A DNA stretch of 52,714 nucleotides from Acidimicrobiales bacterium (GCA_035526015.1 DATLDH010000108.1:1-52714), one strand, 5' to 3'. Positions 3,679-52,714 are shown, numbered from the stretch's first letter. Numbers and translations are program-made. Notes: generated by a model not told the origin, from the letters alone.

Positions 3679-3690
3679 AGAGAATGGGGT

Positions 3691-5265: not shown

Positions 5266-6188
5266 GCCGCATCGCCGAGTCGCTCTTCTGGCTGGGCCGC
5301 TACAGCGAGCGGGCCGAGGACACGGCGCGCATCCTCGACGTGCACTACCACCTTCTCCTCGAGGACCGGTGGGTCGACGAGGAGGCGGCGTGCGCCGCGC
5401 TGCTCGAGGTCATGGGCCTCGGCGAGCGCATCGTCCCCGGCACGGACTCGATCGCCGTCACCCGGCTGCTCGCCTTCGAGGACGGCTACGCCGGCTCCAT
5501 CGTCGGCGCCCTGCACGCCGCCTGGCAGAACGCGCGTGGCGCCCGCGAGGCGATCTCGTCGGAGATGTGGGAGTGCATCAATGCCACCAACGAGGCGCTG
5601 CCGGCCCAGGTGGCCGGCGCCAACCACCAGAGCCCGTCGGCGTTCTTCCGCTGGGTGAAGGAGCGCGCCGCCATCCTCGCCGGCCTGGCCGACTCGACGA
5701 TGACGCGCGACGCCGGATGGCGCTTCGTCGTCCTCGGCCGCAGCCTCGAGCGCGTCGACATGACCTCGCGGCTGCTCTCGGCGCGCTACGGCGACAGCTG
5801 GGGACAGGCCGGCTGGGTGACGACGCTGCGGTGCTGCTCGGGCTACGAGGCCTATCTACGCACCTACCAGCGAGCCGTCGACGCTTCGCTGGCGGCCGAG
5901 TTCCTCGTCCTCGACCGCCTGTTCCCCCGCTCGGTGTTCCACGCCCTGCGCACCGCCGAGGAGTGCCTCGTCGAGCTGGGCCCCACCGTGGGCCGCACCG
6001 GTCCCGACGACCCCGCCCGCCGGGCCCTGGGTCAGGCCCGCAACGAGCTCGAGTTCCGGTCCGCCGACGACCTGCTGGCCGATCTCCCGGGCCACCTCTT
6101 CCGGTTGCAGCAGCACTGCTTCGACGCCGGCGCCGCCATCGCCGACCGCTACTTCCGCACCACGGCTCCCATGGAATGGTCAGCGTGA
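5259..6188 (+). CDS. Alpha-E domain-containing protein (DUF403)
   Basis: GTG at 5259 overlaps the ATP-grasp stop. The N-terminus VLSRIAESLFWLGRYSERAEDTARILDV is the hallmark of the alpha-E domain. Confidence 0.9.
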   Translation: MLSRIAESLFWLGRYSERAEDTARILDVHYHLLLEDRWVDEEAACAALLEVMGLGERIVPGTDSIAVTRLLAFEDGYAGSIVGALHAAWQNARGAREAISSEMWECINATNEALPAQVAGANHQSPSAFFRWVKERAAILAGLADSTMTRDAGWRFVVLGRSLERVDMTSRLLSARYGDSWGQAGWVTTLRCCSGYEAYLRTYQRAVDASLAAEFLVLDRLFPRSVFHALRTAEECLVELGPTVGRTGPDDPARRALGQARNELEFRSADDLLADLPGHLFRLQQHCFDAGAAIADRYFRTTAPMEWSA

Positions 6189-6192
6189 ACGC

Positions 6193-7038
6193 ATGAGCTG
6201 GCGCCTGGCCGTCACCCACACCACTGGCTACCGGTACGAGCGGCCGGTCGTGGCGTCGTACAACGAGGCGCGCCTCACGCCGCTGAGCGTCGAGGGCCAG
6301 CTCACCATCGACGCCAGGGTCGAGGTCGTGCCCCGCGTGAGGATGGGGCGCTATCGCGACTACTGGGGCTCGGTCGTGCACCCGTTCGACGTGCACGTGG
6401 CCCACTCCGAGCTGGTGGTCACGGCGTCGTCGCTCGTCGACACCCGGTCGACCCCGTCGGCCCCGACGACCGACGGCCCGGGCTGGGACGTGCTGTCGGC
6501 GGAGGCGCTCGACCGCTACTACGAGTTCCTCGCTCCCACGGCGACGGTGCCCGAGGACGCCGAGCTGGCCGACATCGCCGGCCAGATCCGGGCCGGTGCG
6601 GCCACGCCCGGCGACGCCGTGGTCGCGGCCAGGGAGTGGGTCGGCGGCCAGCTGGCGTACGAGAAGGGGAGCACCAGCGTGTCCACCTCCGCCATCGAGG
6701 CGTGGCGGTCGGGCCGGGGTGTGTGCCAGGACTACGTGCATCTCACCCTCGCCCTGCTGCGTGCCATGGGCGTCCCGGCCCGGTACGTGTCGGGGTATTT
6801 CCATCCCGAGGCCGAGGCCGGTCCCGGCGACACCGTCACCGCCGACAGCCATGCCTGGGCCGAGGCGTGGACAGGGGAGTGGCACGCCTTCGACCCCACC
6901 AACAACGTCGTCGTGGGCCACCGCCACGTGATGCTGGCCCGGGCCCGCGACTACCGCGACGTGGCCCCCCTCAAGGGCGTCTACAGCGGGGCCCCGTCGT
7001 CCACGCCGAACGTCGCCGTGACCCTGACTCGCCGCTGA
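6193..7038 (+). CDS. Transglutaminase family protein
   Basis: MSWRLAVTHTTGYRYERPV (Bact_transglu_N type), followed by GVCQDYVH, SHAWAEAW and FDPTNN. Confidence 0.9.
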   Translation: MSWRLAVTHTTGYRYERPVVASYNEARLTPLSVEGQLTIDARVEVVPRVRMGRYRDYWGSVVHPFDVHVAHSELVVTASSLVDTRSTPSAPTTDGPGWDVLSAEALDRYYEFLAPTATVPEDAELADIAGQIRAGAATPGDAVVAAREWVGGQLAYEKGSTSVSTSAIEAWRSGRGVCQDYVHLTLALLRAMGVPARYVSGYFHPEAEAGPGDTVTADSHAWAEAWTGEWHAFDPTNNVVVGHRHVMLARARDYRDVAPLKGVYSGAPSSTPNVAVTLTRR

Positions 7039-7067
7039 CTCGCCGCTGACCCGCCGCTGACTCCCGG
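7024..7067. repeat. Tandem 11-nt repeat (ctgactcgccg, about 3.9 copies) at the gene end
   Basis: Units lie at 7024-7034, 7035-7045 and 7046-7056 (1 mismatch), with a partial unit at 7057-7067. Each unit carries a TGA. Confidence 0.8.
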
Positions 7068-7080
7068 TCACACCTCCTTT

Positions 7081-7121
7081 CTGCGACGATTTTCCCCCTA
7101 TGGCGTGGAAAACCGTCGCAG
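7081..7121. promoter_or_regulatory. Imperfect 15-bp inverted repeat bracketing the start codon of the 7100 gene
   Basis: ctgcgacgattttcc (7081-7095) pairs with ggaaaaccgtcgcag (7107-7121), 14 of 15 complementary. The ATG at 7100 sits in the 11-nt loop. Confidence 0.35.
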
Positions 7122-8146
7122 GAACGTTCGTGCTCGCCCTCCTGGTCGTGCTCCCGACGTCCACGCGCGCCGTGACCTTCACCAGGCTGGCCAACTCTCC
7201 GACGGGACGGACGGTGCTCGACCCCGGGCCGCTGACGATGACGGCGGGGAGCGAGGCGTGGCACGAGACCGGGCGCGATTTCCTGCCGTTCGACTACGAG
7301 CAGGGTGTCGCCAGCGACGGCAGGGGCAACCTGTTCTTCAACTCGCGGGGGATGATCTACCGCACCACCACCGGGTGCCCGAGCCCGGGCGACGATGCCG
7401 TCCCCTGCTACGACGTGCGGGCCGAGAACCGCACGCCGATCGATTCCGGCCAGGGCTCGCGGGGGTTCAACCACGTCGGTGACACCAGCGCCGGCCGGAA
7501 GGGCCCCGCCGCCGGCTTCCTGTTCACCCCCGTCGAGAAGTCCCCGGGCAACGGGGTCGACAAGATCTTCAAGGTGTTCGACGCCGAGACGCTGGCGACG
7601 GCCGGCACTCTCGACATCCCGGGACCGTTCTCGCACCATGCGTGGGTGGTCGTCGACCCGAGCGGCCGCTTCATGCTGAACGCCGACGCGACGATCCGGA
7701 AGCTGGAGGTCTACCGGATCAGCCGCAACCCCAAGCCGGCGTCACCGGCCGAGCGGGTCTTCCTGACGAGGGCCAAGGAGCTCGACGTCAGCATCGACGA
7801 GGGGATCCCGGGCGACGTCGGGCCGACCGGGTGCAGCTTCCGCGACGACCTGACGCTGTACTGCGCCGACTGGCGCAAGAACCAGGCCAAGTGGGACGAG
7901 GGCACCGACGTCTACCGCATCCGGTTGCGGTCGCCCGTCGGCATCTCCGGCAATTCCGGCTCGGCCTCGAAGGCGTTCTCCTTCGCCGTCAGCCACCGCA
8001 CGCCGTCCATCACCTATGGCCTCGAGGGCGAGGGGGTCACCTTCTACCGCCGCACCGCGGGCGGCCCGAACGAGCTGCACGTGCTGATCCGCGGCGAGCA
8101 CCTGGCCTCGACATTCCTGCTCCACCTGGCGCCGGGTCGCGGATGA
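7100..8146 (+). CDS. Secreted hypothetical protein
   Basis: 348 aa with the signal-peptide-like N-terminus MAWKTVAGTFVLALLVVLPTSTRA. I recognise no domain. The amino-acid composition is coding-like, in contrast to the Arg-rich alternative frames. Confidence 0.7.
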   Translation: MAWKTVAGTFVLALLVVLPTSTRAVTFTRLANSPTGRTVLDPGPLTMTAGSEAWHETGRDFLPFDYEQGVASDGRGNLFFNSRGMIYRTTTGCPSPGDDAVPCYDVRAENRTPIDSGQGSRGFNHVGDTSAGRKGPAAGFLFTPVEKSPGNGVDKIFKVFDAETLATAGTLDIPGPFSHHAWVVVDPSGRFMLNADATIRKLEVYRISRNPKPASPAERVFLTRAKELDVSIDEGIPGDVGPTGCSFRDDLTLYCADWRKNQAKWDEGTDVYRIRLRSPVGISGNSGSASKAFSFAVSHRTPSITYGLEGEGVTFYRRTAGGPNELHVLIRGEHLASTFLLHLAPGRG

Positions 8147-36830: not shown

Positions 36831-38093
36831 ATGAGCTGGTTCGATGGTGCGGGCCTCGGCATGTTCGTGCACTGGGACCACGCCAGCCAGCAGGGCCTGG
36901 AGATCTCGTGGCCGCTGGTGGGCGGCGTGTTCGCCATCCCCGCGGCCCAGAAAGACGTGACGGTCGAGCAGTACCAGTCGTCGGCGCGGACGTTCGACCC
37001 CCGCGAATGGGATGCCGCCGAGCTGGCTCGCCGGGCGAGAGCGGCGGGCATGACCTATGCGGTGTTCACGGCCAAGCACCACGCCGGCCACGCCATGTTC
37101 CATACGGAGCTTTCGGACTTTTCCATCGAGCACACGCCCTTCGGCCGCGACATCGTCGCCGAGTTCACCGACGCCATGCGGGAGGAGGGCCTGCGTGTCG
37201 GCATCTACTTCTCGCTGTCGGACTGGCACCACGCGGACTACCCACCGTTCACCGAGGCCGACAAGCCCTACACGCTCGGCTTCTCTCCGCCGCTCGGCAC
37301 AGACCAGCAGCACGCGGCGTATCTCGCGTTCCTGAAGGGACAGCTGACCGAGCTGCTCACGAAGTACGGCCGCATCGACCTGCTCTGGTTCGACGGTGGA
37401 TGGGAGCGACGCCGCGAGTGGTGGCGGCCGGATGAGCTCGAGCGCCTGATCCGCGGCCTGCAGCCCGACATCCTCATCAACGACCGCCTCGCCGGAGTGG
37501 GCGACTTCACGACCCCCGAGCAGTTCATACCGCCCTCACCGCCGGACGGCCGGTGGGAGACGTGCATGACGATGAACGAGAGCTGGGGGCACAACCCGTC
37601 CGATACCCGTTGGAAGTCGGCCCGCCACCTCGTGCACTCGCTGTGCGAGGTCACCGCCAAGGGCGGCAACCTCCTGCTCAACGTGAGTCCGACCGGCACG
37701 GGCGCGTTGCCCGGGGCCCAGGTCGAGCGCCTCGGGGAGATGGCGCGGTGGATGGAGCTCCACGGCGAGAGTGTCCGCGGCGTGCGCCCCGGCCTCGCGC
37801 CGTGGCAGTTCTACGGGCCGTCGACCCGCACCGCCGACGGCAGCCGTGTCTACCTGCACGTGCTGGCCCGCCCGTACGAGGCCGTGACGGTGCGGGGTGT
37901 CCCCGTCAAGCGGATCACCGCGGCCCGAGCCATCGGATCGGGCATCGACCTGACGTGGCAGACGCGCACGTCGGTGATCGACATGCTGAACGCCGATCCT
38001 TCGGGCGAGGTGATGATCGAGGTGCCGGAGCACGCGCTCGACCCCACCGCCACCGTGATCGCCCTCGACTTCGAAGGCGGCGTGACGCTCTAA
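36831..38093 (+). CDS. GH29 alpha-L-fucosidase
   Basis: Contains WFDGAGLGMFVHWD, YAVFTAKHHAGHAMF, GIYFSLSDWHH, LLWFDGGW and GGNLLLNVSP. The ATG at 36831 is preferred; the TTG at 36819 is possible. Confidence 0.9.
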   Translation: MSWFDGAGLGMFVHWDHASQQGLEISWPLVGGVFAIPAAQKDVTVEQYQSSARTFDPREWDAAELARRARAAGMTYAVFTAKHHAGHAMFHTELSDFSIEHTPFGRDIVAEFTDAMREEGLRVGIYFSLSDWHHADYPPFTEADKPYTLGFSPPLGTDQQHAAYLAFLKGQLTELLTKYGRIDLLWFDGGWERRREWWRPDELERLIRGLQPDILINDRLAGVGDFTTPEQFIPPSPPDGRWETCMTMNESWGHNPSDTRWKSARHLVHSLCEVTAKGGNLLLNVSPTGTGALPGAQVERLGEMARWMELHGESVRGVRPGLAPWQFYGPSTRTADGSRVYLHVLARPYEAVTVRGVPVKRITAARAIGSGIDLTWQTRTSVIDMLNADPSGEVMIEVPEHALDPTATVIALDFEGGVTL

Positions 38094-39208
38094 GGGCTCG
38101 GTAGCTCCAGCGGTAGGTCGTCGAAGCCGGCGGCGGCGCCCAGGAACGTCGAGTTGGCGATGTTCCAGTGCGTGCTGAGGTAGCTGCCGTTCACCGGGTT
38201 GGCGTGGAAGTAGTCGTCGGACCCGCAGTCGAGCAGCTCGACCCGGCCGCCGCAGCGCCTGAACGTCTTCACCCCACCCTCGCGGTAACACATGATGTCG
38301 GGCTCGTCCCTGCAGTGGGCCAGGCCGTTGGAGTTCGGAGACGAGAGCTGCACGGCCCCCATGGTGTGGAGCAGCTCGTGCGTCTCGGTGTGGGCCGAGT
38401 CGTGCCCCCAGCACGCGACCACGCTGTCGGGCAGCGTCGGGTGCGGCGACTTGAAGGCGATGGCGACCGACCCGCCGAGGCCCCAGACGGCGACCAACCC
38501 CGGTATCTGGCCCAAATTGTTGCTGTTGGCCGGAGTCGGGTTGTCGTCGGCGACCGGTATTGCGCGCGTCGTGCCGACACCGCACGGGTGGGGGGCCAGA
38601 GCCTGGCCGTCGTACCAGACGAGGTACTTGCGGTTGGCCTTGGTCATGCCCGCCGCCGCCAAGGAGTTGTAGATGCCGTTGATCTGGCCACCCATGTCCT
38701 TGCTCTTCTGGGCCGCGGCCGACTGGGAGAGGACCGTGACCGACAGCTTGCAGCCGGGCGCGTGGAAGCGCAGACCGAGCTCACGACCCTGCTGGCGTGA
38801 GGTCAGCCGGAACGTCGCCTCCATCTCGGGTGCCCACTCGTTGACGATCTTGGGGACCCATACGGCCCGATCGTCGTGGCGCCCGTCGACGTACATGTAG
38901 ACGAGCTGGATGCGGTTGCCGTTGACGCCGTTGCCGTAGCACTTCGGTGCGACCCGCTCGTCGTCGACGGCACGGAGCGACGGCGCCGGGTCGGCGCTGG
39001 TGTGGAAGCACGCCACACCGCCGATGTCGAGTCGTCGCCCGCTGTAGCCGGGCCCGCACCCTTCAACGGTGCCGACGGGCCCGACCTCGTTGTCGTGGCC
39101 GACGTGGAGTGTCGCGGGGGCGGTGGCCCGGGCATCGGCCTGGGGCGCCAGCACCAACGACGCCAGCGCCAGCGCGGCCAGCACCGGGGCGAGGCGGCGG
39201 AACCTCAC
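38090..39208 (-). CDS. Secreted HExxH zinc-metalloprotease-like protein (metzincin-like, family not recognised)
   Basis: The signal peptide is MRFRRLAPVLAALALASLVLAPQADA. Contains HTETHELLHTMGAVQLSSPNSNGLAHCRDEPDIMCY. It is a paralogue of the next gene, and its GTG start overlaps the upstream stop. Confidence 0.8.
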   Translation of the reverse strand: MRFRRLAPVLAALALASLVLAPQADARATAPATLHVGHDNEVGPVGTVEGCGPGYSGRRLDIGGVACFHTSADPAPSLRAVDDERVAPKCYGNGVNGNRIQLVYMYVDGRHDDRAVWVPKIVNEWAPEMEATFRLTSRQQGRELGLRFHAPGCKLSVTVLSQSAAAQKSKDMGGQINGIYNSLAAAGMTKANRKYLVWYDGQALAPHPCGVGTTRAIPVADDNPTPANSNNLGQIPGLVAVWGLGGSVAIAFKSPHPTLPDSVVACWGHDSAHTETHELLHTMGAVQLSSPNSNGLAHCRDEPDIMCYREGGVKTFRRCGGRVELLDCGSDDYFHANPVNGSYLSTHWNIANSTFLGAAAGFDDLPLELPSP

Positions 39209-40464
39209 GCGCGGGGTAGCTCGAGCGGCACGGCGTCGAGGCCGAGGGCGTCACCGAGGAAGCTGGACCTGGCGATGTTCCAGTGGGTGGCGAGGTAGCT
39301 GCCCGTGCCGGGGTTGGCGTGGAAGTAGTCGTCGGCCCCGCAGTCGAGCATCGGGATCTTGGTCAGGCACTTGGTATAGACCTTCTTGCCACCCTCGGGG
39401 TAGCACATGATGTCGGTGCCGTCGCTGCAGTGGCCGAGGCCGTTGGAGTTCGGCGCCGAGATCTGGACGCCGCCGAGCGCGTGCACCAGCTCGTGCACCT
39501 CGACGAACGCACCCATGGCCGACTGGCCCCAACCGCCGTTGGCCCGGTCGGGCGCGGGTGCCGCAGTGCGGAAGGCGACGGCGATCGAGCCGCCGTACAT
39601 CACCGGGAGGTACCCGACATTGTTCGGGTTGGCCGGTGTCCCGTTGTCGTGAAGGCTCGCGGGCTGAGGCTCGTCGTAGTCGCGGCGGACGGAGCCGGCA
39701 CCCTGCGGCCCGAAGGAGGGCCCGTCGTACCAGATCATGTACTTGCGACTGGTCTCGTTGAAGCCGGCGTTGGTGAGCGTGTTGTGGATGGCCACCCACA
39801 CCTTCTCGAAGTTGGCCGAGTCGGCGTCTTCGGCCCCTATCTCGAGGGTGTCGACGGTGATCTTGCAGCCAGGGGCATGGAAGCGGAGGCCGACCTCGCG
39901 ACCCTGCGCCGCCGATGCCCGGCGGAACGCCGACTCCATGTACGGCATCCACTCTCCGAGAATGCGGGGGACGATCTCGGCGCGGCGGTCGGCGTGGCCC
40001 TCGCGGAACATGTAGAGGAGCTGGATGCGGTTGCCGTTGACGCCGTTGCCGTAGCACTTGGGCTGCATCTTGTTCACGCTGGGCGAGACGGCAGCCCTGG
40101 AGATCACGTCGTAGTTCTTGTGGATGCAGTCGACGCCGCCGATGACGCGGAGCGCGGTGTGGCCCGGCCCGCAGACGGCTGACGACGTCGGGTCGGCGGC
40201 CAGGTCGGCCGGGCCCGATGCCGCCGCGGTGGGATGGGGCCGGGTGGCGTGGTCGTGGTCTCCGGCATCGACCGTGACCGCGTCGCGCGTGACGGCCGGG
40301 GCGGCGGCCGGCTGGCCGGGCGCGGATCGGGCCGGGGTGCTCGTGAGTGCGGCGACGTCATCGGTGACGGGCGCGATCTCGGAGTGGGGCGCGAGGAGCA
40401 GCCCGGACAGCGCGAGGCCGGCCATCACCAGAGCTGCCCGCGTGCCTGTGCTTCCCATCTCCAC
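39205..40464 (-). CDS. Secreted HExxH zinc-metalloprotease-like protein, paralogue of 38090..39208
   Basis: Has a signal/TM segment ALVMAGLALSGLLLAP. Contains FVEVHELVHALGGVQISAPNSNGLGHCSDGTDIMCY. Shared blocks are KCYGNGVNGNRIQL, GLRFHAPGCK, DCG.DDYFHANP and THWNIA.S.FLG. Confidence 0.8.
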   Translation of the reverse strand: MEMGSTGTRAALVMAGLALSGLLLAPHSEIAPVTDDVAALTSTPARSAPGQPAAAPAVTRDAVTVDAGDHDHATRPHPTAAASGPADLAADPTSSAVCGPGHTALRVIGGVDCIHKNYDVISRAAVSPSVNKMQPKCYGNGVNGNRIQLLYMFREGHADRRAEIVPRILGEWMPYMESAFRRASAAQGREVGLRFHAPGCKITVDTLEIGAEDADSANFEKVWVAIHNTLTNAGFNETSRKYMIWYDGPSFGPQGAGSVRRDYDEPQPASLHDNGTPANPNNVGYLPVMYGGSIAVAFRTAAPAPDRANGGWGQSAMGAFVEVHELVHALGGVQISAPNSNGLGHCSDGTDIMCYPEGGKKVYTKCLTKIPMLDCGADDYFHANPGTGSYLATHWNIARSSFLGDALGLDAVPLELPRA

Positions 40465-40566
40465 CTCTGACTCGACGCCGCCGTACTGCGGTTCTGGCTA
40501 TCCAAGGGTACCGGGGTGGGACCGGCCTCCCTACGCGCGGGCCAAAGCGGACATAGCGTCGGCCGG

Positions 40567-41730
40567 ATGCGCCGGGTCCTCACCCTCATCCTCGCCGTCG
40601 TGCTCCTCGTCGGTGCCGGCTTCGCCGCCGCCACCGTGCTCCCGATCGGCTCCGACGACGACTCGGTGACGGTGCCCCAGACGCCCGGCCCCACCACGTC
40701 CCAGCCCGCAGAGCGGCCGGCCGCGCCCGTGAAGGGTGTCGAGGGCGACCTCAGCGTCACCGACGCCGACGGCGTCGTCCACGCCTGGAAGTTCCTGTTC
40801 GCCGACGACGGCAGCTACCGCCTGGACGGCCCGCCCGAGCTGGGGGGTTTCGCCTACGACGCCAGGACGGGCACGGCCACGGCCGACGGCGACGGCTTCT
40901 CGTCGCGCCAGCGCGACCTGGCCCCCGGGCCCCCCGACCCCGATCCCGAGAACCCGGCCTTCTTCGTGGACCGGCCGCTCGGCTGGCTCGTCCGGGGGCT
41001 GGCCGGCGCCGGTGACGCGTCGATCACCCGGGACACGTTCCTCGGGCGGCCGGCCTGGCGGTACCAGGCCACGTTCCCGCCCAACAAGCTGGCCGGCCCT
41101 GGCGCGCCCGACGAGGTGCGGGCAGTGGTCGACCAGCAGACCGCCTTCCCGGTGTCGATCACCCGCCTGGCGGGCGGCAACGTGGTGGAGGCGCTCACCG
41201 TCGAGCGGCTCGTCGTCGACCCGCCGCCACACCCAGAGCGGTTCGTCCTCGGCAACGAGACCGTGGCCGCCACCGACGAGGGATGGGAGCGCGTCCAGCA
41301 GCCCGAGGTCGCCGGCCGCGCCGGCTTCCGCCCGTTGGTGCCCGACCTCGGCGACGGGTTCGTCTTCGACGAGGTGGCGGTGGCGTCGAAGCCCGGCCAG
41401 ACCGGCCCCGAGGGGTCGAACCCGAACCCGGGACCGGCGGTGTCGTTCTCCTACCGGCGCGGCCTCGACCAGGTCACGGTCACGACCCGGCAGACCGGAC
41501 CCGATCCTCAGGCCTGGGCCGACCCGTTCGGCGGCGAGGGCATGAGCCTGCGCTCCGAGGACGTGGCCGTGACCAAAGGCGCCCTGGCCGGCAGCACGGC
41601 CCGCATCGTGCTCGACGCCCAGTCGGTGCCGCACGCGTTCATCGTCTCGAACCGCCTGGTCGTCACCGTCGGCGGCGCCCTCGACCGGGCCGGCCTCGTC
41701 GCCGCCCTGGAGTCACTGCACGAGGCCTAA
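40567..41730 (+). CDS. Membrane-anchored or secreted hypothetical protein
   Basis: The ATG at 40567 (MRRVLTLILAVVLLVGAGFAAATVL) is preferred over 40516. The composition is coding-like, and I recognise no family with confidence. Confidence 0.7.
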   Translation: MRRVLTLILAVVLLVGAGFAAATVLPIGSDDDSVTVPQTPGPTTSQPAERPAAPVKGVEGDLSVTDADGVVHAWKFLFADDGSYRLDGPPELGGFAYDARTGTATADGDGFSSRQRDLAPGPPDPDPENPAFFVDRPLGWLVRGLAGAGDASITRDTFLGRPAWRYQATFPPNKLAGPGAPDEVRAVVDQQTAFPVSITRLAGGNVVEALTVERLVVDPPPHPERFVLGNETVAATDEGWERVQQPEVAGRAGFRPLVPDLGDGFVFDEVAVASKPGQTGPEGSNPNPGPAVSFSYRRGLDQVTVTTRQTGPDPQAWADPFGGEGMSLRSEDVAVTKGALAGSTARIVLDAQSVPHAFIVSNRLVVTVGGALDRAGLVAALESLHEA

Positions 41731-44977: not shown

Positions 44978-46513
44978 TTACCAGATCACGAGAAGCGCGA
45001 CGAACGGCAGAGGCGCCGCCCAGGCCCACCAGCCCAGCCGCCGCCAGCGCCGCCCGAGGGCGCCCCTGGGCTCGTGCCAGCGCTCGACCCACCGGGGGGC
45101 GGCCAGGACGAGGACGGCCGTGGCGAGGGCGCCCGCCAGGCGGCTGCCGGTGGCGATGGACCAGCGGACGGCCCCCGCGGCGCCGGCGACGGCCGGAGGC
45201 ACGAGCGCAGTGGCGGCGACCCGGGCCCACGGCCGGGCCGAGGCGCGGAGGACGCCGAACCCCCGGCGTCCCGACGTGGCCGACAGCACGAGGGGGACGA
45301 GCACGACGGCGAGCAGCGACGTGGCCACCGGCACCACCCATCCGGCCAGCCCGGTGGCCAGCACCGCCGGGAGCACCGAGCGCAGGATCGGCGACGACCG
45401 GTCCCAGCTCCACCGGGCGGCGCGCCGCGCCGAGCGCCGGGTCGCGGCCCGGGCCCGTCCGGCCAGCCGGACCGCGACCGGCGGCGGCGGGACCACGACC
45501 TCGCTGCGACCCGACGGCCCGGGGAACGGGTCGGGGAGGCCGCGGGCGATCTGGGCGCACCACGGGCAGCGCCGTCCGGCGTGCAGGTGGTGGGCGCTGC
45601 GCCCGCAGGTGCGCAGCCGGGCCTCGACGCGGTCGAGGGCGGCGACCCACGCCGCCGCCGGGGGACGGACGCGAGGGTGGGCGGCACCGGTGACGAAGGT
45701 CCGGCGGGCCAGGCGGCGGAGCGGGGCCGGGAGATCGCGCAAGGGGAGGGCGAGAGGCGGAGGCGCCACCGGCGACAGCCGGCGGTAGGGCCATCGGCGG
45801 GCGCGCATGCGCGCCGCCAGGTCGGGGGGCTCACCGCGGCCGCGCCACACGCCGGCGTAGGGGTGGGTGCCCTGCATGAGAAGGAGGACCACGACGACCG
45901 CCAGCGCGAAGTCGTCGCCGCTGGTGGTGCGGTCGACAGCGGCCAGGTCGACGCGCTGGAACTCCGGCGCCGTGAACTCGGGCTTGGCCACCGTGCAGCG
46001 GTGCACGACGCCGGTGTCGGGATCGCGCACCTGCAGCGAGTCGCAGTCGACGAGGGCGACCAGGGCGCGCCGGCTGACCAGCAGGTTGCTCTCGTTGAGG
46101 TCGCCGATGACGTAGCCCGCCCGGTGGAGGACGTCGACGAGGGAGGCCACGTTGCGGGCCGTGCGCAGCAGGTACCGCCAGTCGAAGGCGGGCGCCACCT
46201 GGGCCCGGCTCTGCGGGTTGTAGAGCTGGAACAGCGACACGTACTCCCGAAGGTCGACGCGCGGCATGAGGAAGCCGTCGACGGTGCCGTCGGCGCCGGT
46301 CAGCAGCTCGCGCGGCCATGCCACCGCGACCGGCCCGGCGCCGGGCGCGGCCGCATCGGGAGGGTGGGCCAGCATGACGCGCAGCTTCTCGGCGCGTGCC
46401 GCAGTCGGACGGCGGTAGCGCTTGGCCGCCAGCTGCGGCCGGCCCGGCACCGCCCACACCTCGGCCTCGCCGCCGGCGCCCAGGCGCTGGGCGGCGTGGA
46501 TCCCCGAGCTCAC
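44978..46513 (-). CDS. Ser/Thr protein kinase-like protein with a Cys/His knuckle and multi-TM C-terminus (yegI / TerY-P-triad type)
   Basis: Contains GEAEVW..LAAKRY (Lys), GYVIGDLNESNLLV (catalytic D..N), VDCDS and FTAPEF. These are followed by CGRSAHHLHAGRRCPWC and then about 4-5 hydrophobic segments. The GTG start overlaps the PP2C stop. Confidence 0.85.
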   Translation of the reverse strand: MSSGIHAAQRLGAGGEAEVWAVPGRPQLAAKRYRRPTAARAEKLRVMLAHPPDAAAPGAGPVAVAWPRELLTGADGTVDGFLMPRVDLREYVSLFQLYNPQSRAQVAPAFDWRYLLRTARNVASLVDVLHRAGYVIGDLNESNLLVSRRALVALVDCDSLQVRDPDTGVVHRCTVAKPEFTAPEFQRVDLAAVDRTTSGDDFALAVVVVLLLMQGTHPYAGVWRGRGEPPDLAARMRARRWPYRRLSPVAPPPLALPLRDLPAPLRRLARRTFVTGAAHPRVRPPAAAWVAALDRVEARLRTCGRSAHHLHAGRRCPWCAQIARGLPDPFPGPSGRSEVVVPPPPVAVRLAGRARAATRRSARRAARWSWDRSSPILRSVLPAVLATGLAGWVVPVATSLLAVVLVPLVLSATSGRRGFGVLRASARPWARVAATALVPPAVAGAAGAVRWSIATGSRLAGALATAVLVLAAPRWVERWHEPRGALGRRWRRLGWWAWAAPLPFVALLVIW

Positions 46514-47253
46514 CGGACGGCCAGGACGAGGGTGGTGTCGTCGTCGGTTCGTGCCGCCACCCGGTCGGACGCGAGGAACGACTCGAGCTCGCCGGCCTGC
46601 CCGTCACCGGCGGCGAAGTCCCACAGCGGGGTGAAGAACGGCTCGTGCGGGCGACCGGCCGCCAGGTCGAGCGCGAGCAGCTGCAGGCCATCGGTCATGA
46701 GCGCGATCCCGGTGACCGCGGCGGCGTCCTCCACCGACACCCGCAGGTCGTCGCGCCACCCGTCGGAGGTGACGAAGCAGGTCTCGTTCAGGTACTCGCT
46801 GCGTCCCGGCGGGTCGAGCAGGGCGACGCCGTCGGCCCGCCGCACGACGACGGCGCCGTCACCCACCTGGGCCACCGCCAGCACGTCGGGGAGGAGCACG
46901 GCGACCGACAAGGTGGTCGACAGGTCGGCCAGCCGGGCGCCATGCGCGACGGCGCGCCGTTGCAGGCGGCCGCGGGTGGCGTGCAGCACGTCGGTGAGCA
47001 GGTGTGGCCAGGTGACGGCGCGACCGGCGCCCTCGGCCTCGGCGATGAGCCACGCCGCGAGCTCGGCCGCCCACACGACCGCCGTCTCGGCCCCCACCGC
47101 GGCCAGACGGGCCGAGCCGGCGCCGTCGGCCACGGCCAGCACGACACCGTCGCCGCTGTCGTCGCCGATCGCCACCACGTGGTGGGCGTCGTCACACCCC
47201 CGGCCGCGCTGGCGGTGACCCGACCCGGTCACCGACGCGCCGACCACGCGCAC
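46510..47253 (-). CDS. PP2C-family Ser/Thr phosphatase
   Basis: A ggagga RBS precedes the GTG at 47253. Contains GASVTGSGHRQRGRGCDDA, LAVADGAGSA, VAQVGDGAVV and ALMTDGL. Confidence 0.85.
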   Translation of the reverse strand: MRVVGASVTGSGHRQRGRGCDDAHHVVAIGDDSGDGVVLAVADGAGSARLAAVGAETAVVWAAELAAWLIAEAEGAGRAVTWPHLLTDVLHATRGRLQRRAVAHGARLADLSTTLSVAVLLPDVLAVAQVGDGAVVVRRADGVALLDPPGRSEYLNETCFVTSDGWRDDLRVSVEDAAAVTGIALMTDGLQLLALDLAAGRPHEPFFTPLWDFAAGDGQAGELESFLASDRVAARTDDDTTLVLAVR

Positions 47254-47288
47254 GAGGCTCTGTCCTCCGCTGAGAGAGCCGCTCGGGC

Positions 47289-47948
47289 TCAGACGGCGGC
47301 CCACCCCGACACGGCGGGGAGGGCGGCCTGGTCGCCGACCTTCGACGCCGACACGTTGCGCTGGCTCTGCGAGAGCCACACGAAGAGCTCGACGAACTGC
47401 AGGCCCTGGAGGCGCAGGGGGTCGCGCACGGCGATCTGGGCGAGCACGTCCATGTTCGCCCCCTGTACGCCGACGGCGAAGAAGGCGAGCCCGTTGGCGG
47501 CCTCGGCCTCGCGCACGGCGGCGGCCGCCTGCTTCCAGTCGTCGGTGGGCTCGCCGTCGGTGACGAGGAAGACCCACGGCCGGTAGTAGGCGACGCCGTT
47601 CGCCTTGTAGTCGCGCTTGCGGTTCTCCACCATCTCCAGGGCGCGCTCGATGGCCTCGCCCATGGGCGTTCCCCCGCCGGCGTGCAGGGTCGGCGGCTCG
47701 AACTGTCCGGCGGTGATGAACCCCTCCACCGTCTTCACGCCGCCGTCGCCGAAGGTCACAACGGCCACCTCGACGCGCTGGCGGGCCAGGGCGTCGGTGC
47801 CGATGTCGGCGGCGAAGGCCCGCAGCCCGTCGTTGAGGGCGGCGATGGGCGCGCCACTCATCGACCCGGAGACGTCGAGCAGCAGTACGCACGCGCAGCG
47901 CGGCTCGGGGTTGGTGGCGAACTCGACTGCGGCCTCCAGCTGACTCAT
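47289..47948 (-). CDS. vWA domain protein (TerY / YegL-like)
   Basis: ATG at 47948 (MSQLEAAVEF). The MIDAS motifs are VLLLDVSGSMSG, GGGTPMGEAI and PWVFLVTDGEPTD. Confidence 0.88.
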   Translation of the reverse strand: MSQLEAAVEFATNPEPRCACVLLLDVSGSMSGAPIAALNDGLRAFAADIGTDALARQRVEVAVVTFGDGGVKTVEGFITAGQFEPPTLHAGGGTPMGEAIERALEMVENRKRDYKANGVAYYRPWVFLVTDGEPTDDWKQAAAAVREAEAANGLAFFAVGVQGANMDVLAQIAVRDPLRLQGLQFVELFVWLSQSQRNVSASKVGDQAALPAVSGWAAV

Positions 47949-47989
47949 GCAGCCATTGAACCGCAGGCGGCCCCTCCGGACGCGGACCG

Positions 47990-47995
47990 TAGAGT
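47990..47995 (+). promoter_or_regulatory. -10-like TAGAGT box 6 nt upstream of the GTG at 48002 (suggests a leaderless transcript)
   Basis: cgtagagtgcacccGTG. There is no Shine-Dalgarno sequence. Confidence 0.3.
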
Positions 47996-48001
47996 GCACC
48001 C

Positions 48002-49219
48002 GTGGAGGTCGACCTCTCCGATCCGCAGACCTATGTCGCCGGCGTGCCGCACGACTGGTTCGCCCATCTGCGGGCTCACGACCCCGTCCACTGGCAGCCC
48101 GCTGCGCACGCCGCCCCGGGGTACTGGGCGCTCACCCGCTACGACGACGTGGTCACCGTCTCCCGCGACCCGTCGGTGTTCTCCTCCTTCGAGGGCACGG
48201 CGCTGCTGGAGGACATGCGGCCCGAGGGCCTGTGGCTCATGCGCCAGCAGCTCATCCACATGGATCCGCCCGACCACACCAACCTGCGAAAGATCGTGAA
48301 CCACGGGTTCACCCCGCGCATGATCCGCCAGCTCGGCGAGCATGTCGCGGAGATCACCGCGGCGATCGTCGACGCCGTGGCGCCGAAGGGCGAGTGCGAC
48401 TTCGTCACCGAGATCGCCGCCGAGCTGCCCCTCCAGGTGATCGCCGAGCTGCTCGGTGTGCCCCACGAGGACCGCTGGAAGCTGTTCGACTGGAGCAACC
48501 GGCTCATCGGTCTGGAGGACCCGGAGTACGGGGGTGGCGAAGTCGACGCCGGCGCCGCCCTGATGGAGATGTTCATGTACGCCGCCGAGCTGGCCCAGGA
48601 CCGTCGGAGCTCGCCCCGCGACGACATCGTCAGCGTGCTCGTCCACGCCGAGGTCGAGGGCGCCAAGCTCACCGACACCGAGTTCAACATGTTCTTCTTC
48701 CTGCTCGTCATCGCCGGCAACGAGACGACGCGCAATCTGCTGTCCGGCGGGATGCTGGCCCTCTGCGAGCATCCCGACCAGCGGGCCAGGTTGGCGACGG
48801 AGTCCCAGCGCGCCGAGCTCCTGCCCAAGGCGGTGGAGGAGATGCTGCGGTGGGTGACGCCGGTGATGTACTTCCGCCGCACCGCTCTCCGCGACACCGT
48901 CGTCGGCGGCCAGGAGGTGAAGGCGGGCGAGCGTGTCGTCATGTACTACGGCTCGGCCAACCGCGACGAGGCCGTGTTCGGCCCGACCGCATCCGCCTTC
49001 GACGTCGGCCGCGAGCCGAACAACCACGTGGCGTTCGGCTTCGGCACCCACTTCTGTCTCGGCGCCAGCCTCGCCCGCCTCGAGATCCGCACCGCCTTCG
49101 AGGAGGTTCTCCGCCGCATGCCCGACCTCGAGGTGGCCGGGCCCGTCGAGCGCCTCCGGTCCAATCTGATCAACGGCATCAAGCACCTCCCGGTGCGCTT
49201 CACCCCCACGAACGCCTGA
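48002..49219 (+). CDS. Cytochrome P450
   Basis: Contains the I-helix LLVIAGNETT, the ExxR motif VEEMLRW and the heme loop FGFGTHFCLGASLA. Confidence 0.93.
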   Translation: MEVDLSDPQTYVAGVPHDWFAHLRAHDPVHWQPAAHAAPGYWALTRYDDVVTVSRDPSVFSSFEGTALLEDMRPEGLWLMRQQLIHMDPPDHTNLRKIVNHGFTPRMIRQLGEHVAEITAAIVDAVAPKGECDFVTEIAAELPLQVIAELLGVPHEDRWKLFDWSNRLIGLEDPEYGGGEVDAGAALMEMFMYAAELAQDRRSSPRDDIVSVLVHAEVEGAKLTDTEFNMFFFLLVIAGNETTRNLLSGGMLALCEHPDQRARLATESQRAELLPKAVEEMLRWVTPVMYFRRTALRDTVVGGQEVKAGERVVMYYGSANRDEAVFGPTASAFDVGREPNNHVAFGFGTHFCLGASLARLEIRTAFEEVLRRMPDLEVAGPVERLRSNLINGIKHLPVRFTPTNA

Positions 49220-49232
49220 TGCGGCGCTCACC

Positions 49233-49238
49233 TAGACT
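49233..49238 (+). promoter_or_regulatory. -10-like TAGACT box 6 nt upstream of the GTG at 49245 (suggests a leaderless transcript)
   Basis: cctagactgaggccGTG. There is no Shine-Dalgarno sequence. Confidence 0.3.
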
Positions 49239-49244
49239 GAGGCC

Positions 49245-51335
49245 GTGACGGTCGCGGGGGCGGACGCCGGCCCGGCCGGATCCACGCCCTTCTCCCAACT
49301 CGGTGAGCGGTGGACGGAGTTCATGCGCCGTCGTCGTCGGCGCGCCGCGGCCCGGCGTCGTCGGGGTGGCAAGGGCGTCATGCTGCTCGTCAGCTGCCTG
49401 GCCGTGCTGCTGCTGGCCGTGGTGTGGTCGTTCGCCTACCTCGAGCCGTCGTCGCCGGGCAAGGAGCTGTCGATCGACCAGCTGGCCGGGCTCACCGAGC
49501 AGGCCAGGGTGAAGGCGGCGACGTTCCTCGACCAGGACGCGCGGATCGTCGGCGAGTTCGTGGGCCGGCCGGTGCTCGCCACACCGCCCCCGGCCCCGCC
49601 CACCGCCGCCGCGCCGGGCGCCAAGGTGCCGGTCTTCGGCGGGAAGTTCTGGGTCTCCTACCCGCGCAACGACGCCACGACGAGCCGCCTGATCGAGCGC
49701 ATGAGCCAGTCCGGCGCCATCGTCCGCGTCGACCCGCAGACCTCCAAGGCGTCGGTCCGCATCGTGCTCACCGTGCTGTTGCCCCTCGTCATCCTCGCCA
49801 ACCTGTTCGCCCTGTTCTTCGTGGCCGGTCGGGGGACGGCCACCGGCCTCGGTGACGTCACCGACTTCTCGCGCATCGGCGGCGGGCGCGGCCGCGGCGG
49901 GCGCGTGGGCCACGGCGCCATCACCTTCGCCGACGTGGCCGGCGCCGACGAAGCGGTGGCGGAGCTGGCCGAGGTCGTGGACTACCTCGCCAACCCCGAC
50001 CGTTACAAGCTGCTCAATGCGGCACCACCCAAGGGCGTGCTGCTGTTCGGGCCGCCGGGGTGCGGCAAGACCCTGCTGGCCAAGGCCGTCGCCGGCGAGG
50101 CGGGCGTGCCCTTCTTCAGCGTGGCCGGGGCCGAGTTCGTCGAGTCGCTCGTCGGAGTCGGCGCGGCGCGCGTGCGCGACCTGTTCACCCGGGTGCGGGG
50201 CGTGGCGCCGGCCATCGTGTTCATCGACGAGCTCGACGCCGCCGGCCGCCGCCGCGGCGGAGGCAGCTCCGGGGGCGGCGCCGACGAGCGCGACCAGACC
50301 CTCAACCAGCTGCTGGTGGAGATGGACGGGTTCGAGGCCAGCAGCGGCATCGTCGTCATCGGCGCCACCAACCGGCCCGACATCCTCGACCCCGCCCTCC
50401 TCCGCCCCGGGCGGTTCGACCGTCACATCACCATCGAGCGGCCCGACCTCGAGCGGCGCCAGGCCATCCTCGAGCTGCACGCCAGGCGCAAGCCGCTCGA
50501 GCCCGGCATCGACTTCCATCGCCTCGCCCGCCAGACGCCCGGCTTCAGTGGCGCCGACCTGGCCAACGTCGTCAACGAGGGCGCCCTCCTCACGATCCGC
50601 GAGGGCGGCCACACCGTCGGCGCCCGCCTGCTCACCGAGGCCGTGCAGCGGGTGCTCGCCGGCCCGCAACGCCGGGGTCACCTGATGAGCGCCGAGGAGC
50701 GCCAGCGCATCGCCGTGCAGGAGGCGGGCCGCGCCATCCTCGTCGCCCTCAGCGGCCGCGGCGAGGACATCCACCGGGTGTCCATCGTGGCCCGCGCCCA
50801 CGGCTACGGCACGACCCTGTTCGAGCGCGAGGACGACGCCGTCCTCCGAACCGAGGGGCAGCTCCTCCACCAGCTGACCACGTCGATGGCGGGCCGCGCC
50901 GCCGAGCTCCTCGTGTTCGGCGACGCCTCGACCGGCACCGAGAACGACATCGAGACCGCCACCAGCCAGGCGCGCGAGATGGTGGGCCGCTACGGCCTCT
51001 CACCCGCCCTCGGGCCCCAGCGGCTGCTGGCGTCGGAGGCCGACATCTACCTCGGCGCGTCCGACGGCCTGCTGCCGCTGGCCGAGCCCACCCACGACCG
51101 CTTCGATGCCGAGGTGCGACGGGTGCTCGACGCCGCCCTGGCCCGATCCGTCGCCCTGCTCCGGCGCCACCGCACCTCGCTCGACCGCCTGACCGAGCAC
51201 CTCCTGGCCGAGGAGACGGTGGAGGGCGACGAGCTGCAGCAGCTCCTGCCCGATGCCGAGCCGATGGCGACCAACGGGGCCACGCCCAAGAAGGCGGCGG
51301 CGGCGCGGAAGTCGACGGCCAGGGCGCGCCGGTGA
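49245..51335 (+). CDS. FtsH-like membrane AAA+ protein with a degenerate M41 protease zinc site (HEXXH replaced by QEAGR)
   Basis: Has 2 TM segments flanking an extracytoplasmic region. AAA+ motifs are intact: Walker A GPPGCGKT, Walker B IVFIDELD and SRH GATNRPDILDPALLRPGRFD. The M41-like C-terminal half reads RIAVQEAGRAILVAL where FtsH has ..YHEaGHA... The N-terminal start is uncertain. Confidence 0.9.
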   Translation: MTVAGADAGPAGSTPFSQLGERWTEFMRRRRRRAAARRRRGGKGVMLLVSCLAVLLLAVVWSFAYLEPSSPGKELSIDQLAGLTEQARVKAATFLDQDARIVGEFVGRPVLATPPPAPPTAAAPGAKVPVFGGKFWVSYPRNDATTSRLIERMSQSGAIVRVDPQTSKASVRIVLTVLLPLVILANLFALFFVAGRGTATGLGDVTDFSRIGGGRGRGGRVGHGAITFADVAGADEAVAELAEVVDYLANPDRYKLLNAAPPKGVLLFGPPGCGKTLLAKAVAGEAGVPFFSVAGAEFVESLVGVGAARVRDLFTRVRGVAPAIVFIDELDAAGRRRGGGSSGGGADERDQTLNQLLVEMDGFEASSGIVVIGATNRPDILDPALLRPGRFDRHITIERPDLERRQAILELHARRKPLEPGIDFHRLARQTPGFSGADLANVVNEGALLTIREGGHTVGARLLTEAVQRVLAGPQRRGHLMSAEERQRIAVQEAGRAILVALSGRGEDIHRVSIVARAHGYGTTLFEREDDAVLRTEGQLLHQLTTSMAGRAAELLVFGDASTGTENDIETATSQAREMVGRYGLSPALGPQRLLASEADIYLGASDGLLPLAEPTHDRFDAEVRRVLDAALARSVALLRRHRTSLDRLTEHLLAEETVEGDELQQLLPDAEPMATNGATPKKAAAARKSTARARR

Positions 51336-52714
51336 AGCCCCGCCGCGTCCCCGCGGCAGCGACCCTCGCGGCACTGCTCGTCGTCGCCGCGCTGCTCGCA
51401 CCGGGCCTGCAGGCGGCCCCGCCCGAGGGGTCGCCGCCCCTGGTCGAGATCCCGCCGTTCCAGCCTCCGCCGCCGCCCCGGCCGGCCCCGGCCCGCATCA
51501 CGCCGGGTGACGCCCGTCTGCGCATCCCGCCCGGCAGCGAGGTCGGCATCGTCCACCGCCTCGACCTGCCGGCCCGCCCGACACCGCTCGACGTGTTCTT
51601 CCTCGTCGACACCTCGGGCAGCCAGGAGCCGAGCATCCGCGGCCTGGCCCTCGGCCTGGCCCAGCTCACCCGCAAGCTGGCCGAGGCCGGGCTCGACGCC
51701 CAGTTCGGGCTCGGCGAGTTCCAGGACGTGTGGGCCGACTCGCCGGGCGTCCGCTATCGCCGCCGGGTCGACATCCGCCGTCCCGACCGCGTCTTCCAGT
51801 ACCAGCTCGAGCGTCTCTACACCGATGGCGGCGACGAGCCCCACCTCACCGCCCTGCACCAGGTCGCCACCGGGTCGGGCTTCGAGGAGGGCGACGGCGC
51901 CGAGATCTCCAGTCCGGTCAACGGCTACAGCGAGGCCATCGAGCCCGGGCAGGGGGCGACGTGGCGCCCCGGATCGTTGCGCGTGGTCGTCATGATCACC
52001 GACGAGACCTTCAGTGACATGGGCACCGGTCCGACCCGTGACGAGACGGTCGAGGCGCTGCGCGCCGACGGTGCCCGCATGGTCGGTGTCGAGATCTGCA
52101 ACCTCGAGCCCCGCGGCAGTGGCGCCAACTGCGTCGAGTCGGCCCGGGCCGCCGCCGATTCCCAGGGCCAACCGCTGGCCACCCAGCTGCGGGAGCAGCT
52201 GGAGGACATCTCCGGTGCGACCGACGCGTTGGCGCCCGCCGGCGGCGTCGACTGTCTCGACAACGGCAGCGTCGAGCTGAAGGAGGGCCATCCCCTCGTC
52301 TGCACGTTGCCCGAGTCCGAGGACGGCGACAGCGGCGTCGTGAAGATGGCGGGCCCGCTCACGCGCGTGCTCACGTCCCTCGTCGACCTGCAGCCCGTGA
52401 CGCTCAGCCTGGTGCAGCCGGCCGCCTTCGACGCGCGGATCGCAGGCCAGGGCGACTACTCGCAGGTCGACGTCAAGCGCACCAACCAGCTCTCGTTCCA
52501 GACCGCGCTCGGTTGCCGGTACGACCAGGCCGGCAGCAGCGGCCGCCTGCGCTTCATCGCGCGGGTCGGGCCTCAGGTGGTGGGTGAGGCGATCGTGGAC
52601 GCGACCTGTGGTGACGTGATCGTGGTGCCGACGGCGTCCGCGCCGCGCGCCGCTGTCGTGCAGCCGGTGAGCGCCCCGCCGCCGGCGCCCGCCCCGGTGG
52701 CCAGTCCCGCGCCG
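51332..52714 (+). CDS. Secreted vWA domain protein; the 3' end runs off the window
   Basis: My own translation from GTG at 51332 (GTGA overlap with the FtsH-like stop): VKPRRVPAAATLAALLVVAALLAPGLQAAP..., with MIDAS DVFFLVDTSGS, then YTDGGDEPH and LRVVVMITDE. The frame stays open to position 52714 and is absent from the ORF track. Confidence 0.8.
   Translation, partial: MKPRRVPAAATLAALLVVAALLAPGLQAAPPEGSPPLVEIPPFQPPPPPRPAPARITPGDARLRIPPGSEVGIVHRLDLPARPTPLDVFFLVDTSGSQEPSIRGLALGLAQLTRKLAEAGLDAQFGLGEFQDVWADSPGVRYRRRVDIRRPDRVFQYQLERLYTDGGDEPHLTALHQVATGSGFEEGDGAEISSPVNGYSEAIEPGQGATWRPGSLRVVVMITDETFSDMGTGPTRDETVEALRADGARMVGVEICNLEPRGSGANCVESARAAADSQGQPLATQLREQLEDISGATDALAPAGGVDCLDNGSVELKEGHPLVCTLPESEDGDSGVVKMAGPLTRVLTSLVDLQPVTLSLVQPAAFDARIAGQGDYSQVDVKRTNQLSFQTALGCRYDQAGSSGRLRFIARVGPQVVGEAIVDATCGDVIVVPTASAPRAAVVQPVSAPPPAPAPVASPAP

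Follow-up and report, generated by a model that had tools for sequence, protein, structure and literature searches.

A putative membrane module of a zinc-less FtsH paralogue and an integrin-beta-like surface protein in uncultured Actinomycetota

Introduction

In bacteria, FtsH is usually treated as one housekeeping protease, and mutagenesis of the E. coli protein has established that FtsH without the histidines of its HEXXH zinc site does not cleave its substrates while ATP hydrolysis is kept. In plastids, the FtsHi proteins work together with FtsH12 in a complex associated with protein import. The Arabidopsis members FtsHi1, 2, 4 and 5 keep the AAA+ and M41-like regions but have no HEXXH, and are thought to be ATP-driven motors or scaffold subunits and not proteases (PMC8197885; PMC9020784). 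Here, we analysed a stretch of 52,714 nucleotides from an Acidimicrobiales bacterium (GCA_035526015.1, DATLDH010000108.1:1-52714; this whole stretch is called the window), at one end of which the gene of an FtsH paralogue with QEAGR in place of HEXXH overlaps the gene of an exported protein with a von Willebrand factor A (vWA) domain, hereafter the partner. The window FtsH resembles FtsHi in having no HEXXH, and the likeness is in function only: FtsHi are eukaryotic proteins of the plastid envelope, whereas the loss in the window is bacterial, is tied to an integrin-beta-like partner and is young enough for the ligand residues alone to have changed. The nearest relatives of the window FtsH are actinobacterial proteins from metagenome-assembled genomes (MAGs) that have HExxH, and the loss would therefore be independent of that in FtsHi, plants being absent from our tree.

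Canonical bacterial FtsH, as in E. coli and T. maritima (TIGR01241), has the same architecture as the window protein, which differs from it by the missing zinc histidines, by SLVG in place of MFVG in the pore-1 loop and by a clade-wide IVARG in place of IIPRG; furthermore, the window contains no tilS, hpt or folE gene. The pairing of an FtsH paralogue with a signal-peptide-bearing extracytoplasmic protein is also seen in phytoplasmas, where each ftsH paralogue is preceded in its operon by the gene of a secreted substrate-binding-like protein (PMC6981957). Unlike in the window pair, HExxH is kept by the phytoplasma FtsH copies and their partners are relatives of oligopeptide ABC substrate-binding proteins; the FtsH clade and the partner fold both differ.

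The coupling of a AAA+ ATPase gene to that of a vWA protein with a metal ion-dependent adhesion site (MIDAS) is a feature which the window pair has in common with RavA-ViaA, CbbQ-CbbO and the MoxR-vWA “FtsH ternary” systems (PMC7159879). In the latter, an effector of defence against invaders is under the control of a vWA protein and AAA+ chaperones, and the FtsH-type component is a double-AAA protein with two FtsH-type AAA domains of which the first is inactive (Kaur et al, 2020; PMC7159879). The MoxR-vWA pairs use MoxR-clade ATPases and act in one compartment, whereas in the window pair the vWA domain would be extracellular and the AAA+ ring intracellular.

Like integrin beta, the partner has a betaI/vWA domain with a DxSxS MIDAS, which from our structural model may be inserted in a beta-sandwich (hybrid) domain, and in its full-length relatives a stalk, a single transmembrane (TM) helix and a short tail in the cytoplasm follow. 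Unlike integrin beta, it gave no Pfam match to PSI or EGF repeats and its stalk is Pro/Ala rich; there appears to be no alpha subunit, and in some relatives the same chain carries instead a BNR-type propeller at its N-terminus; the tails of the relatives end in -RR without NPxY motifs. An integrin-beta-like protein without a TM segment has been reported from Trichodesmium erythraeum (PMC3192720), and no FtsH link has been described for it. Our literature search found no report of an actinobacterial integrin-beta-like family or of its link to FtsH. It also found neither a bacterial zinc-less FtsH nor an FtsH/integrin-beta-like pairing, subscription journals being thinly covered so that absence is not proof; the original prediction made on this DNA, which knew of no bacterial pairing of a pseudo-FtsH with a vWA protein, agrees with this. 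It thus appears that neither the FtsH clade nor the partner family, nor the pairing of the two, has been described.

Results

The FtsH paralogue is encoded at 49245–51335 (+) by an uninterrupted frame of 696 codons, with a G+C content at third codon positions (GC3) of 0.96 as in the real genes of this 72% G+C contig. The product comprises an Arg-rich N-terminus, a first TM segment, an extracytoplasmic domain of about 105 residues, a second TM segment, the AAA+ domain, the AAA lid and Peptidase_M41, the two TM segments being placed by hydropathy at around residues 46–66 and 172–196. Pfam matches were obtained with AAA (PF00004; 3.1e-43), AAA_lid_3 (2.6e-11) and Peptidase_M41 (PF01434; 3.2e-40, 138 bits), the last one spanning residues 480–667 and profile positions 2–191 of 191, while FtsH_ext remained below its cut-off (17.3 bits against 25.5) and the NCBIfam model TIGR01241 (FtsH_fam) was narrowly passed with 605.2 bits at a cut-off of 600. 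The best matches among solved structures by phmmer were chains of T. maritima FtsH (7tdo, 8vw9 and 2ce7; E about 1e-140), and the identity to canonical bacterial FtsH was about 45–50% over the AAA and M41 regions. When aligned to T. maritima FtsH, the Walker A motif GPPGCGKT (50049–50072, +), the Walker B motif IVFIDELD (50214–50237, +) and the SRH (second region of homology) with its arginines, ATNRPDILDPALLRPGRFD (50364–50420, +), were all found intact. The full FtsH architecture and the intact AAA+ motifs that had been read by eye from the sequence were thus recovered by profile searches, hydropathy and alignment. A promoter of its own, which the original prediction had assigned to a TAGACT box, was not supported: the box at 49233–49238 ends 6 nt ahead of the GTG start of FtsH, a scan for sigma-70 promoters and terminators over 47800–52714 found nothing, and a P450 gene on the same strand ends 25 nt upstream of FtsH.

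The codons CAG GAG GCG GGC CGC at 50718–50732 (+) encode QEAGR at the former HEXXH zinc site. In the phmmer alignment, “iavQEAGRail” of the window protein lies without a gap under “iayHEAGHavv” of T. maritima FtsH, and with the M41 profile matched end to end the two motifs are in register; the claimed loss of both zinc-ligand histidines from the HEXXH column was therefore borne out by the alignment and the codons. Each of the lost His codons (CAG and CGC) is one nucleotide away from CAC, and the catalytic Glu of HEXXH is kept. The motif TENDIE (50937–50954, +), which aligns with aNDIErAT of T. maritima, retains the Asp of NDIE/DDLE that we take to be the third zinc ligand in FtsH crystal structures. 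At 161 columns that are conserved in at least 90% of the clade described below, the window FtsH departs at three only, H492Q, H496R and A635S, and His is conserved at the two zinc columns in 100% and 98% of the other 90 clade members. For three random changes among the 161 conserved columns, the probability that both zinc histidines are included was calculated as 6/(161 × 160), or about 2e-4. That two of only three changed columns are the zinc histidines argues for a targeted loss of the active site and not for a decaying pseudogene. Given the established biochemistry of FtsH, a protein with these histidines gone should still hydrolyse ATP and grip or translocate polypeptide, but should not cut it; the window FtsH is thus very probably a peptidase-dead but functional ATPase. 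A scan of metagenomic DNA for the pattern AVQEAGRA gave at least 120 stretches, and among the matches listed none encodes FtsH.

An exact-sequence look-up of the window FtsH gave no entry; the nearest proteins to it among 5.8 billion clusters are only 57–64% identical, and have in common with it an Arg-rich N-terminus, “WSFAYL” at the end of the first TM segment, the pore-1 loop FVESLVGVGA and “SIVARGRGLG”. In a neighbour-joining (NJ) tree of 160 single-module FtsH proteins, taken from homology searches and from fetched loci, about 90 form one clade with the window FtsH, almost all of them from Actinomycetota MAGs. HExxH is kept by about 95% of this clade, and its signature is S[IV][LV]AR(G) replacing canonical IIPRG, in members with an intact HExxH as well. 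The window sequence SIVARAHGYG (50781–50810, +), which corresponds to the strand “IIPRG..LG” of canonical FtsH, had earlier been read as a degenerate IPRG (IVARA); because the whole clade has the IVAR form, it was rejected as a sign of decay. The pore-1 loop FVESLVGVGA of the window (50136–50165, +) has Leu where the canonical loop has an aromatic Phe, and SLVG is found in 69 + 7 + 4 of 90 clade members (about 89%), MFVG being the commonest form outside the clade. The substrate-gripping aromatic of canonical FVEMFVGVGA is thus Leu in most of the clade. The tilS-hpt-ftsH-folE setting was absent from the clade neighbourhoods inspected. We also observed that the top matches by bit score (P0002–P0057) were FtsH-like proteins of about 1,110–1,200 residues from Actinomycetota and Chloroflexota MAGs, in which two tandem AAA modules precede a single M41 domain.

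The stop codon of FtsH overlaps the GTG start codon of the partner gene in the sequence GTGA (51332–51335, +), as had been noted, and the translational coupling that was predicted from it is upheld. The partner gene covers 51332–52714 (+) with its first 461 codons, the 3' end being lost at the contig end. The encoded part consists of a signal peptide (about residues 4–28), three beta strands, the vWA/betaI domain, a beta-sandwich and the start of a Pro/Ala-rich stalk. The MIDAS motif predicted earlier is indeed intact, reading DTSGS at residues 93–97 (51608–51622, +), and DxSxS is found in the window partner and in most of its relatives. T180 and D224, which are invariant in 5-sequence alignments, would be the Thr and Asp of the MIDAS, though D224 varies in an 8-sequence alignment. 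Pfam gave only sub-threshold matches to vWA_SIBA-E and Integrin_beta. An AlphaFold2 model built from a shallow alignment of five sequences (mean predicted local distance difference test score, pLDDT, 73; predicted TM-score 0.69) has strands before (residues 55–79) and after (323–426) the vWA domain. In a Foldseek search of the PDB, the top 47 matches of this model were all integrin beta chains, with E values down to 2e-14 over about 430–450 columns; the TM-scores were only 0.35–0.48 for this shallow-alignment model and were best with open headpieces. By sequence, the profile of the partner family matched integrin beta-8, beta-7 and beta-3 (E 2.5e-5), and an optional N-terminal domain of the family matched BNR/GH74-type propellers and Ycf48. 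These matches suggest that the partner resembles the integrin beta headpiece, that is, the hybrid and betaI domains.

The full-length relatives of the partner have a signal peptide, sometimes a BNR-type beta-propeller, the hybrid and betaI headpiece, the Pro/Ala stalk, a TM helix and a basic tail. Thus, the earlier description of a secreted vWA protein holds as far as export is concerned, the N-terminus being signal-peptide-like, and does not hold in the sense of a freely secreted protein, as the relatives are anchored at the C-terminus. Among 35 complete open reading frames of the family, 22 end in -RR and 30 have Arg as the last residue, with a median tail of 14 residues. The -RR end is present with or without an adjacent FtsH or a following gene. 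That it is forced by the start codon or ribosome-binding site of the next gene was considered and rejected, as it occurs equally where no gene is close (the last gene of L006, and FtsH-less loci). The conserved tail (for example that encoded by the genes L006:4514-6004, L006:6001-7539 and L003:5194-8004) may be a recognition tag.

The conservation of the pair was examined by a survey of one genome per GTDB species with the 5-sequence partner alignment as query. It returned 35 partner loci, all from MAGs and nearly all from Actinomycetota, and both window proteins have relatives in Nitriliruptorales MAGs. The window partner is 46% identical (E 1e-94) to the product of the gene immediately upstream of the FtsH P0058. 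A partner homologue directly adjoins a clade FtsH in 18 loci including the window, nine of which have the partner first (L001, L003, L007, L009, L011, L012, L022, L040 and L043) and nine FtsH first (the window, L006, L045, L021, L032, L033, L035, L036 and L039). In L006, two partner paralogues lie in tandem (L006:4514-6004 and 6001-7539). The two genes overlap by 4 nt in the window, L003, L006, L009 and L045, and several junctions have overlaps or gaps of 1–13 nt. The pairing is kept with FtsH proteins down to about 50% identity and partners down to about 26%, through the inversion of gene order and the duplication of the partner, and in the neighbourhoods inspected no other gene was conserved. 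These results support the two-gene module which was predicted from the window, and a functional partnership of the FtsH paralogue with its neighbour appears very likely from this conservation. The co-occurrence of FtsH homologues of the QExxR type with a vWA gene, which had been proposed, stood with respect to the pairing and not with respect to QExxR, since most of the partner-linked FtsH proteins keep HExxH. On these comparisons, the zinc site has been lost repeatedly, but only in a minority of members, within a clade that was already specialised.

The link between the two families is strong and frequent without being one-to-one or obligatory, as follows from 11 loci without FtsH, which are weighed below, and from one MAG with three partner loci (L022, L026 and L031) of which only L022 has FtsH; one FtsH may serve several partners. 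In two loci of another branch of the clade (L004:8001-12328 and L044:6001-10479), the FtsH gene is followed within 0–1 nt by a gene of about 750 codons for a double-AAA (Cdc48-like) protein, and in L044 a gene of the partner family lies about 5.7 kb further downstream. The partner-adjoining FtsH at L032:752-2972 is split into two frames on a contig whose name gives about 0.9x coverage, and the split is due to a sequencing error or else marks a true pseudogene.

The exceptions to HExxH in the clade are QEAGR in the window, YESGR in L006, YEAGH in P0277/L045, HEAGP in P0058/L001, HEAGR in P0149 and HHAGH in P0197. The FtsH genes at L006:2532-4517 and L045:1822-3813 each overlap the downstream partner gene by 4 nt. 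Their products are 72% identical, so that the change of the first His to Tyr is common to both across 28% divergence, and despite the loss of zinc ligands the frames are still open and the partner is still adjacent. This shows, on sequence comparison, that the first His was changed to Tyr in the ancestor of L006 and L045 and the second to Arg later in L006, and by the same evidence it is a case of stepwise and persistent loss in a lineage separate from that of the window. In a bootstrapped NJ tree built without the motif columns, L006, P0060 (with HExxH intact) and P0058 grouped at 91%, and the window and L006 were sisters in only 3% of the replicates. P0149 and P0197 lie elsewhere in the tree of 160 proteins. 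These separate placements indicate that zinc or catalytic residues have been lost at least three times independently.

For L006 against L045, dN/dS (NG86; dS near saturation) was 0.10 in AAA and 0.35 in M41. As dS was near saturation, ratios of dN between M41 and AAA were used for the remaining comparisons. The pairwise dN(M41)/dN(AAA) was 2.7–4.1 for pairs that include the window FtsH and about 3.1–4.1 in most pairs with a protein changed at a zinc-ligand His, a few being lower, against about 2.3–3.2 in seven pairs among the intact proteins of L002, L003, L004, L009 and L011. The mean ratio of amino-acid divergence between M41 and AAA was 2.43 in the window FtsH, 2.52 in that of L006 and 2.45 in P0058, and 1.97–2.37 in the others, relatives with HExxH intact. 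Thus, M41 evolves somewhat faster relative to AAA in zinc-less lineages, yet it is clearly still constrained, a pattern that fits a pseudo-enzyme rather than a pseudogene.

Elsewhere in the window, a triad on the minus strand encodes a kinase-like protein that has a Cys-rich segment and, at its C-terminus, hydrophobic segments (44978–46513), a PP2C phosphatase (about 46510–47290) and a vWA protein (47289–47999). It gave a weak PADLOC match to TerY and looks like a known, separate module of the TerY-P type (PMC11090510). The second vWA module which had been pointed out close to the FtsH pair is therefore present, and no evidence linking it to the pair was found. Further upstream, a circularly permuted ATP-grasp protein (705 residues) is followed, past the stretch 5266–6192, by a transglutaminase-like protein (3148–7035, +), presumably a known conserved gene cluster. 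One frame at 41727–~43217 (−) contains PseudoU_synth_2 and Methyltrans_SAM domains and would, from its sequence, be a fused RNA-modification enzyme; as the listed frame of 756 codons overlaps the upstream AlkZ-like gene, its true start is probably later. Three consecutive genes for proteins of about 370–420 residues, at 38090–39208 (−), 39205–40464 (−) and 40516–41727 (+), had no Pfam match.

Discussion

The results together favour, at a probability that we would put roughly at 0.6, a conserved module of uncultured Actinomycetota that pairs a specialised, zinc-less FtsH paralogue with an integrin-beta-like surface protein and in which FtsH would be ATP driven and peptidase dead. As the vWA head is extracellular and the AAA+ ring intracellular, contact between the two proteins is expected through the TM segments, the partner tail or the external domain of FtsH. 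The partner's TM helix and basic tail could be where the cytoplasmic AAA+ ring engages it, and the two extracytoplasmic domains may also be in contact. In most relatives, which have an intact HExxH, this arrangement would allow the surface protein to be removed or processed under regulation. In the window lineage and at least two others, the peptidase would have been switched off, and FtsH could act as an ATP-driven extractor, a chaperone or a conformational controller of its partner.

Several observations weigh against this reading. No relative of the window FtsH exceeds 64% identity, and QEAGR may not be long-lived: its changes, being single-nucleotide steps, could be recent. The absolute values of dN/dS are unreliable with dS near saturation (GC3 about 0.95). 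The resemblance of the partner to integrin beta comes from a model with the shallow alignment, the pLDDT and the integrin TM-scores given above, and the window partner is cut before its C-terminus, its own TM helix and -RR tail being inferred from relatives. Eleven well-flanked loci, mostly of distant partners (about 28–35% identity), have no FtsH within 7 kb, and all relatives of the pair are metagenomic.

Among the other explanations, the one that survives best is that the zinc-less FtsH is a non-cutting subunit in a mixed hexamer with an active FtsH, so that the complex still degrades proteins, possibly including the partner. The continued conservation of M41, which forms the protease ring in solved FtsH structures, and the predominance of HExxH-intact members in the clade are in line with it, and mixed FtsH complexes and FtsHi provide precedents (PMC9020784; PMC8197885). 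In the 52.7-kb window, however, no second ftsH was found, tblastn giving one copy and Pfam none among the other genes. That the protein works mainly in such hexamers is rather unlikely by our estimate, and it would be compatible with the other readings, overlapping with the ATP-driven, peptidase-dead module and not excluding it.

It is very improbable that the two codons result from mistakes in sequencing or assembly, or that the gene was freshly inactivated and is heading for decay. The single-nucleotide distance of each change from CAC and the singleton state of the window protein would fit such an origin, but the 696-codon frame is open with a GC3 of 0.96, just 3 of the 161 conserved columns are changed, of which two are precisely those of the zinc ligands, and errors would have to strike both ligand codons within 15 nt and nowhere else. 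Furthermore, like losses have arisen independently in relatives, and the one in L006 and L045 has lasted across their divergence. There is a similarly small chance that the neighbour is functionally unrelated, the overlap reflecting operon packing and FtsH serving in general quality control. The distant partner homologues without an adjacent FtsH would agree with that, as would L002, with no partner downstream of FtsH (its upstream side being cut by the contig end), and L004 and L044, where the Cdc48-like gene adjoins FtsH instead; against it stands the adjacency in 18 loci, which at the identities reported above survives order inversions and partner duplication with nothing else conserved around. 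A conflict system of the MoxR-vWA “FtsH ternary” type (Kaur et al, 2020), which the vWA protein beside an FtsH-type AAA+ protein and the second vWA signalling triad 1.2 kb upstream might recall (PMC7159879), is hardly credible here, as there is no MoxR among the window genes scanned or the called genes of related loci and no effector gene here, the window FtsH has one AAA domain with a full M41 and TM segments and not two AAA domains with an inactive first, the vWA partner is exported and integrin-beta-like, and PADLOC gave only generic AAA models for FtsH and no match for the partner.

Within the module of an ATP-driven FtsH and its surface protein, it is possible, though tentative, that the partner is a client which FtsH engages by the tail, and unlikely that it is a regulator or adaptor of FtsH; the conserved -RR tail, the presence of one FtsH for several partners and the changed pore loop weakly favour the tail-client relation. 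A more specific version, in which the FtsH ring would grip the -RR tail and ATP-driven pulling would set the surface level or the head conformation of the integrin-like protein, is quite improbable on present sequence comparisons. If true, inside-out integrin control would have an analogue in bacteria, the zinc-less versions like that of the window would serve as pure mechanical actuators, and many uncultured Actinomycetota may carry a system of an integrin-like receptor and a AAA+ motor.

As TIGR01241 is passed by 5 bits, annotation pipelines will name such proteins “ATP-dependent zinc metalloprotease FtsH”, a label that is wrong for the zinc-less members. The analysis points to a large unnamed FtsH clade with an altered substrate-gripping loop, a genomic partner of the integrin-beta type and repeated loss of the peptidase site. 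If confirmed, these proteins would be the first bacterial counterpart that we could trace of the plastid FtsHi pseudo-proteases and would offer a natural separation-of-function series (HExxH, YExxH and YExxR/QExxR) for the FtsH motor without proteolysis, as well as a concrete starting point for working out what bacterial integrin-beta-like proteins do.

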